In this document: in pieces, positions 60,274 through 63,380 of the stretch | How the letters are laid out: each line of letters begins with the position of its first letter | Position numbering within the stretch: position 1 is the first letter of the stretch | Assembly (NCBI RefSeq): GCF_024298765.1 | Contig: NZ_CP101210.1 | DNA length: 64,000 nt | Strand: one strand, 5' to 3' | DNA from: Escherichia coli | GTDB lineage: Bacteria; Pseudomonadota; Gammaproteobacteria; Enterobacterales; Enterobacteriaceae | Notes under the pieces: model-generated | Told to the model about the DNA's origin: nothing | Databases searched by the model: none | The model's input: only the letters and a program-made list of their open reading frames with translations | Program-made: the position numbers and the translations under genes

Positions 60274-61692
60274 ATGGAAACCAATATCGTTGAAGTAGAG
60301 AACTTTGTTCAGCAGTCAGAAGAGAGGCGGGGTAGCGCCTTTACGCAGGAAGTGAAACGCTACCTGGAGCGCTACCCGAATACGCAATATGTTGATGTTT
60401 TACTTACCGATTTGAATGGTTGCTTCCGTGGAAAACGTATTCCTGTTTCAAGCCTGAAGAAGCTCGAGAAAGGGTGTTATTTCCCGGCCTCGGTGTTTGC
60501 AATGGATATTCTGGGCAACGTAGTAGAAGAAGCGGGCCTGGGTCAGGAAATGGGCGAGCCGGATCGTACCTGTGTTCCTGTTCTCGGTTCCTTAACCCCT
60601 TCTGCCGCCGATCCAGAGTTTATCGGTCAGATGCTCCTGACCATGGTCGATGAAGATGGCGCTCCCTTTGACGTTGAGCCGCGGAACGTTCTTAACCGCC
60701 TGTGGCAGCAGCTGCGCCAGCGCGGATTGTTCCCGGTCGTAGCGGTAGAGCTGGAGTTCTATTTACTGGATCGCCAGCGCGACGCTGAAGGATATCTGCA
60801 ACCGCCCTGCGCGCCCGGCACCGATGACCGCAATACACAAAGCCAGGTTTACTCCGTTGATAACCTCAACCACTTCGCCGACGTGCTCAATGATATTGAT
60901 GAGCTGGCGCAGTTACAGCTGATTCCGGCAGATGGCGCGGTCGCCGAGGCCTCGCCAGGTCAGTTTGAAATCAATCTTTACCATACCGATAACGTGCTGG
61001 AAGCTTGCGATGATGCGCTGGCACTAAAACGCCTGGTGCGTCTGATGGCAGAAAAGCATAAGATGCACGCCACTTTTATGGCGAAGCCGTATGAAGAGCA
61101 CGCGGGCAGCGGGATGCATATCCATATCAGTATGCAAAATAATCGTGGCGAGAACGTGCTTTCTGACGCGGAAGGCGAAGATTCGCCGCTGCTGAAAAAG
61201 ATGCTCGCCGGGATGATTGACCTGATGCCGTCATCAATGGCGTTGCTGGCACCAAACGTGAACTCGTATCGCCGCTTCCAGCCGGGGATGTATGTACCGA
61301 CGCAGGCGTCGTGGGGCCATAACAACCGCACCGTCGCCCTGCGTATTCCCTGCGGCGATCGCCATAATCACCGCGTGGAATATCGCGTGGCGGGTGCCGA
61401 TGCCAACCCGTATCTGGTGATGGCGGCGATTTTTGCCGGTATTTTGCATGGCCTTGATAACGAACTGCCATTACAGGAAGAAGTCGAAGGTAACGGGCTG
61501 GAACAGGAAGGCTTACCCTTCCCGATTCGCCAGAGCGATGCCCTGGGTGAGTTTATCGAGAATGATCACCTGCGCCGCTATTTAGGCGAACGCTTCTGCC
61601 ATGTCTATCACGCCTGTAAAAATGATGAGCTGTTGCAGTTTGAGCGCCTCATCACAGAAACAGAAATTGAGTGGATGTTGAAAAACGCGTAA
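60274..61692 (+). CDS. puuA: Gamma-glutamylputrescine synthetase (glutamine synthetase family)
   Basis: ORF 60196..61692; start preferred at METNIVEVENFVQQ (472 aa). Confidence 0.95.
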   Translation: METNIVEVENFVQQSEERRGSAFTQEVKRYLERYPNTQYVDVLLTDLNGCFRGKRIPVSSLKKLEKGCYFPASVFAMDILGNVVEEAGLGQEMGEPDRTCVPVLGSLTPSAADPEFIGQMLLTMVDEDGAPFDVEPRNVLNRLWQQLRQRGLFPVVAVELEFYLLDRQRDAEGYLQPPCAPGTDDRNTQSQVYSVDNLNHFADVLNDIDELAQLQLIPADGAVAEASPGQFEINLYHTDNVLEACDDALALKRLVRLMAEKHKMHATFMAKPYEEHAGSGMHIHISMQNNRGENVLSDAEGEDSPLLKKMLAGMIDLMPSSMALLAPNVNSYRRFQPGMYVPTQASWGHNNRTVALRIPCGDRHNHRVEYRVAGADANPYLVMAAIFAGILHGLDNELPLQEEVEGNGLEQEGLPFPIRQSDALGEFIENDHLRRYLGERFCHVYHACKNDELLQFERLITETEIEWMLKNA

Positions 61693-61837
61693 TACCCCTT
61701 GCGGGGTTGTTTCATCGGCCTGAGCGGAGCCAGGCCTGACATTTGCTGGTAATCCAGACATTTCCCGGATGTCGCGTTATGGAGCGCAGGCGGCAACGGG
61801 CTTCCGTTAACGATTAAGACTGTGACGAGGAAATGAG

Positions 61838-62005
61838 ATGATGCCGATGATTAAATCCCCGCATGGCGAGGGAGGCTGCGTATGCGCCCCTCCTGCGACT
61901 GACTGGACTCCGCCCCCTCTGCTTCCCTTGCTAAACAGGTTTGATTTCAGGTCGACACGACCGCAAACCTTATTACGCAGGGGAGGCAGCAATTATGGCT
62001 ATTAA
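61838..62005 (+). CDS. Candidate 55-aa upstream ORF overlapping the puuP start
   Basis: ATG at 61838 with GAGG 7 nt upstream; [55 protein letters not shown]; stop at 62003..62005 overlaps the puuP ATG (61995) by 11 nt; no homology evidence. Confidence 0.25.
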
Positions 62006-63380
62006 TTCACCACTGAATATTGCTGCGCAACCTGGCAAAACCCGTCTGCGAAAATCACTGAAATTGTGGCAGGTGGTGATGATGGGTCTGGCCTATCTCA
62101 CGCCGATGACCGTATTTGATACTTTTGGTATTGTCTCCGGCATTAGCGACGGTCACGTTCCGGCGTCCTATTTGCTGGCGCTGGCGGGCGTGCTGTTTAC
62201 CGCTATCAGCTACGGCAAACTGGTTCGCCAGTTTCCGGAGGCCGGTTCGGCCTATACCTACGCGCAAAAGTCGATTAACCCGCACGTCGGATTTATGGTC
62301 GGCTGGTCATCGCTGCTGGATTATCTCTTTTTGCCGATGATCAACGTTTTGTTGGCGAAAATCTATCTCTCCGCCCTCTTCCCGGAAGTGCCGCCGTGGG
62401 TGTGGGTGGTAACCTTCGTTGCCATTTTAACCGCCGCGAATCTGAAGAGCGTCAACCTGGTCGCTAACTTCAATACCTTGTTTGTACTGGTGCAAATCTC
62501 CATCATGGTGGTGTTTATCTTCCTGGTTGTTCAGGGACTGCATAAAGGAGAAGGCGTTGGCACCGTCTGGTCACTTCAGCCGTTTATCAGCGAGAACGCG
62601 CACCTGATCCCAATTATTACCGGGGCGACGATTGTCTGTTTCTCCTTCCTCGGTTTCGATGCGGTGACCACGCTTTCGGAAGAGACGCCGGACGCCGCAC
62701 GCGTGATCCCGAAAGCCATCTTCCTGACGGCGGTATACGGCGGCGTTATCTTTATCGCTGCGTCGTTCTTTATGCAGCTGTTCTTTCCCGATATCAGCCG
62801 CTTTAAAGACCCGGACGCCGCACTGCCTGAAATTGCGCTATACGTCGGCGGCAAGCTCTTCCAGTCGATTTTCCTCTGTACCACGTTTGTGAACACGTTA
62901 GCGTCTGGCCTGGCGTCGCACGCCAGCGTGTCGCGTCTGCTGTATGTGATGGGGCGTGACAATGTGTTTCCGGAGCGCGTGTTTGGCTATGTGCACCCGA
63001 AATGGCGGACTCCGGCACTGAACGTCATTATGGTCGGGATTGTCGCGTTGTCAGCGCTGTTCTTTGATTTAGTCACCGCGACAGCATTGATTAACTTCGG
63101 TGCTCTGGTGGCATTTACCTTCGTAAATCTGTCGGTGTTTAATCATTTCTGGCGGCGTAAAGGAATGAATAAAAGCTGGAAGGATCACTTCCACTATTTG
63201 CTGATGCCGCTGGTTGGCGCGCTGACGGTGGGTGTGTTGTGGGTTAACCTCGAGTCAACGTCACTGACACTCGGTCTGGTATGGGCTTCGTTAGGCGGCG
63301 CATATTTGTGGTATCTGATCCGCCGCTATCGCAAAGTGCCGTTGTATGATGGTGACAGAACGCCGGTGAGCGAAACGTAA
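61995..63380 (+). CDS. puuP: Putrescine importer PuuP (APC superfamily)
   Basis: ORF 61941..63380; start preferred at [26 protein letters not shown] (461 aa). Confidence 0.94.

Follow-up and report, generated by a model that had tools for sequence, protein, structure and literature searches.

A conserved upstream open reading frame, ymjE, as a candidate cis-acting translational leader of the putrescine importer gene puuP in Enterobacterales

Between the gene of the glutamate-putrescine ligase, puuA, and that of the putrescine:H+ symporter, puuP, Escherichia coli carries a short open reading frame (ORF) that runs into the beginning of puuP, and the question raised by this locus is what an ORF in such a position does for the gene that follows it. 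The region was studied in a 64,000-nucleotide (nt) stretch of contig NZ_CP101210.1 (assembly GCF_024298765.1), hereafter the window, whose coordinates are used throughout unless a locus is named. The upstream ORF (uORF) occupies 61838-62005 on the plus strand, contains 55 codons counted from its first ATG and figures in the program-made ORF list of the window. Its stop codon, TAA at 62003-62005, is made from codons 3 and 4 of puuP (ATT AAT); the puuP ATG (61995-61997) begins 8 nt before this stop does, and the two frames overlap by 11 nt. The Shine-Dalgarno (SD) sequence of the uORF, GAGGAA at 61827-61832 (plus strand), includes the GAGG (61827-61830) that stands 7 nt before the ATG at 61838, and CGAGG is invariant across 27 species. 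A sequence-only reading of the window had described this ORF, its GAGG and its end 8 nt past the puuP ATG, all of which proved correct, and had taken the geometry as typical of translational coupling or leader-peptide control. The latter interpretation is supported here on the basis of a conserved, covarying hairpin predicted to bury the puuP SD inside the uORF. We consider it probable that the uORF, which is the catalogued gene ymjE, is a cis-acting leader ORF coupling the translation of puuP to its own.

The puuP SD, GGGGAGG at 61980-61986 (plus strand), lies inside ymjE and in the 3' arm of a predicted hairpin that spans 61919-61989 of the same strand. The outer helix of this hairpin pairs CUGCUUCCCUUGC (61919-61931) with GCAGGGGAGGCAG (61977-61989), and the inner one pairs AGGUUUG (61937-61943) with CAAACCU (61964-61970). 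Folding of 61800-62030 placed the SD in this long hairpin in both the minimum free energy and the centroid structures, and when 61912-62000 was folded alone the free energy was -40.1 kcal/mol (z-score -5.83), a stability reached by none of 200 shuffled sequences. For comparison, PuuP was searched for in one genome per species, which gave 80 loci, and a set of 47 sequences (46 fetched loci and the window) was composed of those with puuA upstream on the same strand and a puuP starting with ATG; Hafnia is in the set although its puuA is about 2 kb away. The puuP SD was buried in such a hairpin in all 47 sequences when folded, with stems of differing sequence such as ACCCCGUUGC/GCAGCGGGGG, CCUCCC/GGGAGG and UUUCCCC/GGGGAAA. 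In an alignment of 36 species RNAalifold found 13 consensus pairs, seven of them with compensatory double changes; 96.4% of the alignment cells were paired, compared with at most 53.6% when the partners were slid, and the covariation score of 0.296 exceeded those of the slid pairings (at most 0.114) and was reached by none of 500 shuffles. The terminator scan gave no terminator-like site at 61919-61995, and since the hairpin is followed by CAAUUAUGG and not by a U tract, it is not an intrinsic terminator.

In the mechanism that we propose, the ribosome-binding site (RBS) of puuP would be locked in this hairpin, the 5' arm of which lies within ymjE. A ribosome initiating at the ymjE SD and ATG (61827-61840) would read through the frame and melt the hairpin, and its termination at UAA (62003-62005), on top of the puuP start at 61995, would allow the same or a fresh ribosome to initiate puuP. 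PuuP synthesis would then be set by the frequency of ymjE translation. The regulated step would probably be the initiation or early elongation of ymjE, because residues 1 to about 13 are conserved as peptide and the leader of about 130 nt that precedes the ORF is structured and able to pair with its SD and start, as detailed below.

The frame itself is widely conserved. All 47 sequences carry an ATG-initiated ORF in the same relative frame whose stop lies over the puuP start, 11 nt into the gene, with the puuP SD held in structure within the path of the uORF, as in coupled leaders. Over the uORF span these sequences contain no stop codon in the uORF frame, whereas the two alternative frames contain 154 and 122. 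The uORFs fall into twelve length classes (55, 56, 60, 61, 62, 63, 64, 65, 66, 67, 70 and 72 codons), all of them in frame, and every insertion or deletion has therefore been frame-preserving; the stop position is identical in every species that has the uORF. The genera concerned include Escherichia, Klebsiella, Raoultella, Enterobacter, Citrobacter, Cedecea, Trabulsiella, Lelliottia, Buttiauxella, Pluralibacter, Franconibacter, Hafnia and several Serratia. Even without a neighbouring puuA, puuP retains its uORF, as in Shimwellia, where the upstream 2.5 kb contain no puuA, and in Hafnia, whose puuA is distant. The sequence-only reading had named a lack of conservation of the frame in related species as the outcome that would speak against it; with the frame kept across Enterobacterales, that outcome was not observed. 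In four Serratia (oryzae, AKBS12, H1w and rubidaea; loci L044, L048, L053 and L061, at about 2460-2515) the uORF body and the SD hairpin are missing, and a uORF-type SD (…ggtGAGGAAaatcccATG) stands directly before the puuP ATG; these are natural deletion variants. One fetched locus (L036, CACSKA010000001.1), titled Chryseobacterium sp. 18061, has an Enterobacteriaceae-type puuA-ymjE-puuP arrangement and a PuuP with 88% identity, and probably comes from a mislabelled or contaminated assembly.

The ORF is a known, catalogued and translated gene, on which the published record is limited to its existence and translation. RefSeq annotates it as 'YmjE family protein' or 'protein YmjE', and in K-12 MG1655 it is ymjE (b4742, 1359177-1359341), to which the window ORF is 100% identical by tblastn. 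The record identical over the 501-nt query around the ORF has the ymjE coding sequence at 1742-1906 of its locus and puuP at 1896, a layout that NC_000913.3 shares. The same 501 nt found a match in 4374 of 5426 complete E. coli genomes, with 100% identity to strain 104; the region around ymjE had no match in the remaining 1052, and in strain PEC422 the match sets in only a short way before the puuP start, suggesting that its leader has been replaced or disrupted. The peptide matches the Pfam family PF23692 (YmjE-like) with an E-value of 1e-43 and 147.5 bits against a cut-off of 27, over positions 1-54 of 54. This family is narrow: the Klebsiella form, at 25.3 bits, falls under the cut-off, and the Citrobacter and Serratia forms are missed though they are positional and frame homologues. 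A search of six divergent peptide forms against the NCBIfam hidden Markov models gave no match, and against Pfam gave only YmjE-like. VanOrsdel et al. 2018 (PMC6001520) detected YmjE by chromosomal sequential peptide affinity (SPA) tagging and immunoblot and listed it as positive in tetracycline ribosome profiling, which provides the translation signal that the sequence-only reading had asked for. The sole remark of those authors on the site of ymjE is that it lies immediately upstream of puuP, and functions related to the adjacent genes were suggested. Literature searches on a puuP leader peptide, CsrA, Rho-dependent termination and arrest peptides returned nothing on a leader or coupling role of ymjE.

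RefSeq and VanOrsdel et al. place the start of ymjE at the second ATG of the ATGATG at 61838-61843, so that the annotated gene runs from 61841 to 62005 and encodes 54 amino acids. The conserved start is probably the first ATG, at 61838, as the sequence-only reading had chosen, and the annotation would be one codon short; the first ATG is favoured because Raoultella has ACG as codon 2 and the plaP-type leaders described below have GGG or GAG. In most genera a three-codon frame, ATG AGA TGA (M-R-stop; 61833-61841, AAATGAGATGATG), overlaps the ymjE start codons; it is probably incidental, because it is missing in the Klebsiella oxytoca group (GGTAGGAAATGATG).

What selection maintains in ymjE differs along its length. 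Codons 1-13 (61838-61876, plus strand), with the consensus MMQMFKYP(Q/H)GEGG in most genera, are the only part under purifying selection at the peptide level, a property expected of arrest peptides. The ratio of nonsynonymous to synonymous differences (pN/pS, Nei-Gojobori) is 0.25 for these codons and 0.6-0.85 for the rest of the gene. For codons 5-12 it is 0.26 in frame versus 2.43 and 0.98 in the other two frames, the changes being mostly third-position ones (TTC/TTT, TAT/TAC, GGC/GGA, GAG/GAA, GGA/GGG/GGC/GGT). Beyond codon 13 or so, ymjE appears on these comparisons near neutral as a peptide and constrained as RNA: the apparent mid-peptide motif TPLLSRF corresponds to the 5' arm of the RNA hairpin, and the C-terminal GG..HGD to the puuP SD and start codon. 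A second motif, RS(E/K)YGP or RIDYDGP, follows the inverted-repeat hairpin described in the next paragraph in many genera, with its tyrosine at residue 20 or so (19-21) and synonymous codon variation; the Y-G-P is lost in Escherichia, the window peptide included. A peptide-level constraint limited to codons 1-13, with the rest near neutral, agrees better with a role in cis than with a folded protein.

The sequence-only reading had also drawn attention to an inverted repeat as a possible regulatory structure of the puuP 5' region. The repeat is there (GGGAGGCTGCG at 61870-61880, CGCCCCTCC at 61885-61893) and is predicted to form a local hairpin, P5, over uORF codons 11-19 (61870-61893, plus strand), but it is a minor element, the dominant structure being the 61919-61989 hairpin. 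Similar hairpins with different stems are predicted in most taxa; at the codon position of P5 in 13 other taxa, a set outside which E. coli stands, 88.5% of cells were paired versus at most 48% when slid, and three pairs showed double changes. As the main regulatory structure the repeat was rejected, its segment z-scores being unremarkable and the covariation at the equivalent hairpin modest. The interior of the uORF also contains a C-rich, G-poor stretch (61876-61935, plus strand) with 26 C and 12 G in 60 nt. An excess of C over G in this stretch is found in 47 of 47 uORFs, and in E. coli it ranks no higher than about the 93rd percentile among random segments of the window. It may be read as a weak signal resembling a Rho utilization (rut) site, and an involvement of Rho is kept as a weak possibility.

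Upstream of ymjE lies a conserved structured leader of about 130 nt (61710-61837, plus strand), with a mean column identity of 77% in an alignment of 27 species (A2). In its alifold structure 98.1% of cells were paired, compared with at most 47% with partners slid. The leader contains P1 (61717-61722 with 61731-61736) and P2 (61745-61749 with 61754-61758), both with compensatory changes. A third helix of the plus strand, P3 (61764-61766 with 61798-61800, plus 61771-61775 with 61790-61794), shows one-sided G/A changes opposite U. Covariation of the RNA type in P1 and P2 indicates that the leader region is transcribed, and suggests that it forms part of puuA-ymjE-puuP transcripts that read through a weak hairpin after puuA. 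Within the leader, CUUC (61801-61804) could pair with the uORF SD GAGG (61827-61830), and an upstream GCAUCAU with AUGAUGC. The triplet GGA never varies in the P1 loop (AGCGGAGC, 61723-61730, itself invariant), in the P3 loop AUGGAGC (61780-61786) and in the uORF SD (GAGGAA), and in Serratia, Hafnia and Franconibacter the sequences CAGGA, CGGGA and CAGGA, respectively, are found in the loop of a hairpin immediately before the SD. The pattern is reminiscent of CsrA sites, but with a motif as short as GGA these are candidate sites only. A sigma-54 promoter at TGGAGCGCAGGCGGCA (61780-61795) was considered and dropped: the putative -12 GC becomes AC or AT in about half of the species, and the G/A change there fits U.G and U-A pairing in P3. 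No promoter emerged from the sigma-70 scan of 61400-62300, and the Rfam 15 covariance models, run over 61000-62600 with E-values up to 10, gave four chance-level matches (E of at least 1.1) far below the gathering thresholds.

A comparable arrangement precedes plaP, whose product in E. coli is a paralogue with 63% identity to PuuP. The 20-residue yoeI (MGQFFAYATVITVKENDHVA; L084:649-711, outside the window) likewise ends exactly 11 nt into the importer gene, with a stop made from importer codons 3 and 4 (CAT AAC in plaP) and a GAGGAA before it. Its product, annotated as a membrane protein, starts with M-G-Q-F-F-A-Y where YmjE has M-M-Q-M-F-K-Y. In contrast to ymjE, yoeI is far shorter in E. 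coli and the hairpin over the plaP start is weak (z-score -1.35). The complementation reported by Halvorsen et al. 2024 (PMC11630599) was poor with plaP alone and full with yoeI-plaP, which suggests that yoeI affects PlaP expression; in the same study a puuP clone that began at its ATG, under a vector RBS and lacking ymjE, gave a functional receptor in contact-dependent growth inhibition (CDI). Longer uORFs of 70-74 codons with a similar layout precede plaP-type genes without puuA in Edwardsiella (L066, L069, L070, L073), Photorhabdus (L076, L079, L082, L083) and Samsonia (L081), at about 2270-2511 of these loci. They too follow a GAGGAA and overlap the importer by 11 nt in Edwardsiella and Photorhabdus and by 8 nt in Samsonia. 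SD-masking hairpins are predicted at the Edwardsiella and Photorhabdus leaders, in the latter with -40 kcal/mol and a z-score of about -4.9. The plaP-type peptides begin with M-(G/E)-Q-x-F and carry a (D)-Y-G-A motif at residues 19-22. The homologues in Bacillus and Pseudomonas have none of these leader features. An hhalign comparison aligned the puuP-type and plaP-type leader peptides end to end (probability 66%, E-value 5.5e-5), which lends moderate support to their common ancestry, and no more than that, since the homology of the importer starts by itself imposes the C-terminal part of the alignment.

Several points weigh against the coupling model. According to Weaver et al., the level of YmjE-SPA in lysogeny broth is low, and our literature searches yielded no reporter, toeprint or profiling data for the ymjE leader. 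The helices that would mask the SD and the AUG of ymjE never vary and are thus beyond the reach of comparison, the AUG-masking one being moreover weaker in E. coli; the share of puuP messenger RNAs that carry the leader is judged solely from the RNA-type covariation in P1 and P2. Furthermore, coupling by itself leaves the conservation of the N-terminal peptide unexplained. That coupling alone does not account for the conserved N-terminus and the structured 5' leader suggests that the translation of ymjE is itself regulated.

One way to account for this would be that YmjE is a regulatory nascent peptide of the arrest or sensor type. Its conserved N-terminus would lie in the exit tunnel with a (D/E)-Y-G-(P/A) motif at residues 19-22 or so, and a stall responsive to putrescine or another polyamine would decide the opening of the hairpin and perhaps the loading of Rho. 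Such a role would extend the coupling model, and we judge it unlikely though arguable. It would be consistent with the confinement of purifying selection to the first 13 codons; with the occurrence of RS(E/K)YGP, RIDYDGP or DYGA at a fixed distance from the start, in varied synonymous codons, in both the puuP-type and the plaP-type leaders; with the M-x-Q-x-F start common to these two paralogous sets and the hhalign match between them; and with the C-over-G stretch of all uORFs. A precedent exists in the same area of metabolism in SpeFL, reported as an ornithine-sensing arrest peptide (bioRxiv 10.1101/604074). These points have to be set against literature searches that returned no stalling data, the lack of similarity to catalogued arrest peptides in Pfam and NCBIfam, the absence of Y-G-P from the window peptide and the mere 20 residues of E. 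coli YoeI, the only moderately unusual composition of the C-rich stretch, and the putrescine-responsive transcriptional control already provided by PuuR (PMC9397018). A broader conjecture, which we hold more loosely still, is that YmjE and YoeI are what E. coli retains of an ancient and undescribed family of regulatory leader peptides before PuuP and PlaP across Enterobacterales, whose nascent chain would sense putrescine or a related metabolite. The marks of such a family would be the M-x-Q-x-F start, (D/E)-Y-G-(P/A) at residues 19-22 or so, the SD-masking hairpin and the 11-nt stop/start overlap. If this were true, the stalling or release of a YmjE-type peptide would decide the opening of the importer RBS, and possibly Rho termination, as a post-transcriptional feedback on polyamine import.

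The signal could instead be received by the RNA, with CsrA, a small RNA or a riboswitch-like ligand acting on the 5' leader and the ymjE SD and the uORF merely relaying the effect. CsrA represses iraD in this manner, through the coupled leader ORF idlP, and the conserved P1, P2 and P3, the invariant GGA of two loops and the SD, and the loops of Serratia, Hafnia and Franconibacter would suit such a factor. We nevertheless think this improbable, given the shortness of the GGA motif, literature searches in which no paper linked CsrA to puuP, the lack of an Rfam match, an upstream hairpin of E. coli yoeI whose loop has no GGA, and the invariance that places the SD- and AUG-masking helices beyond comparison. 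Quite improbable, in our estimation, is a free-standing small protein acting in trans, for instance on PuuP or PuuA, with the overlap a matter of operon compaction. Tagged YmjE is abundant enough for immunoblot, its N-terminus is conserved, VanOrsdel et al. (PMC6001520) suggested functions related to the adjacent genes and YoeI is annotated as a membrane protein; yet about three-quarters of the peptide is almost neutral and its length ranges from 55 to 72 residues, its mid-peptide and C-terminal motifs are accounted for by the hairpin arm and by the SD and start of puuP, the ORF body is deleted in some Serratia, and PuuP works as a CDI receptor without ymjE (PMC11630599). That the frame is open by chance, or its translation pervasive and devoid of function, would agree with its low protein level and with the absence of a reported phenotype, and is scarcely credible in view of a frame that stays open in 47 of 47 sequences despite heavy divergence and twelve length classes, the coding-type selection on its N-terminus, the conservation of its SD and ATG, and the recurrence of the same design at the plaP paralogue.

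The surroundings of the leader show some further features. The upstream cistron puuA occupies 60274-61692 on the plus strand according to the RefSeq annotation of a 100% identical record (tblastn, 100% over 472 amino acids), puuP occupies 61995-63380 on the same strand, and the spacer between them measures 302 nt; puuD is present in the window on the minus strand. Just after the puuA stop, the promoter and terminator scan marked a terminator-like GC hairpin with a weak T tract (61694-61707, plus strand), the sole such site of note between 61400 and 62300. Klebsiella, Raoultella and Lelliottia have a hairpin of different sequence in the same place (CGCCCCGCAAGGGGCG), and it may serve as a leaky terminator or as a stabiliser between puuA and the leader. 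In some species (L028, L047 and L041) the variable spacer between puuA and the leader contains, just after puuA, palindromes such as GTTGCCCGGTGGCGCTTCGCTTACCGGGCCTAC that resemble repetitive extragenic palindromic (REP) elements. For K-12, the table of one paper lists REP111 for puuA/puuP; the retrieved K-12 annotation has no repeat feature there.

The existence of ymjE is not news, since the ORF is already in the K-12 annotation. What appears to be undescribed is the breadth of the uORF beyond its Pfam family, the conserved SD hairpin, and the design and leader-peptide start shared by two putrescine importers. Translational coupling through ymjE would provide a concrete candidate function for an orphan small protein, and probably for YoeI too, and would bring polyamine uptake under an additional, post-transcriptional level of control, the conserved peptide motif being a candidate for a nascent chain that senses a metabolite. 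In practical terms, a tag on ymjE or yoeI, or its deletion, would disturb expression of the importer gene, and a Keio-type deletion of puuP or plaP that of the small ORF, and puuP or plaP constructs without their leaders may be mis-expressed, as seen for plaP.

Among known systems, the attenuators trpL and hisL also place a leader ORF in a structured leader with alternative hairpins; the ymjE hairpin differs in that it would mask an SD rather than terminate transcription. A classical attenuator was rejected for this locus, given CAAUUAUGG instead of a U tract after the hairpin and the lack of a conserved run of regulatory codons in the peptide alignment. The likeness to TnaC and SpeFL lies in a short leader ORF before a gene related to amines or polyamines, and in peptide conservation at a constant distance from the start; SpeFL, moreover, has its place in polyamine metabolism (bioRxiv 10.1101/604074). 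In contrast, ymjE has no sequence similarity to either of them, and where TnaC and SpeFL act through Rho-dependent termination, what stands out in ymjE is the SD-masking hairpin, combined with an overlap of stop and start. In coupling by RBS unmasking, as in idlP-iraD, a short uORF ends at or over the downstream start, and the downstream SD lies in the uORF and in secondary structure. The ymjE-puuP pair has the same arrangement, with the uORF stop over the downstream start and a structured SD inside the uORF; we infer for it the dependence of puuP on uORF translation, as well as the signal sensed. Indirect evidence for such a dependence comes from the full complementation by plaP when yoeI accompanies it (PMC11630599) and from the Serratia variants in which the uORF SD is joined straight to puuP. 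What it has beyond the idlP-iraD type is conservation of the N-terminal peptide and a long 5' region that is structured and conserved.

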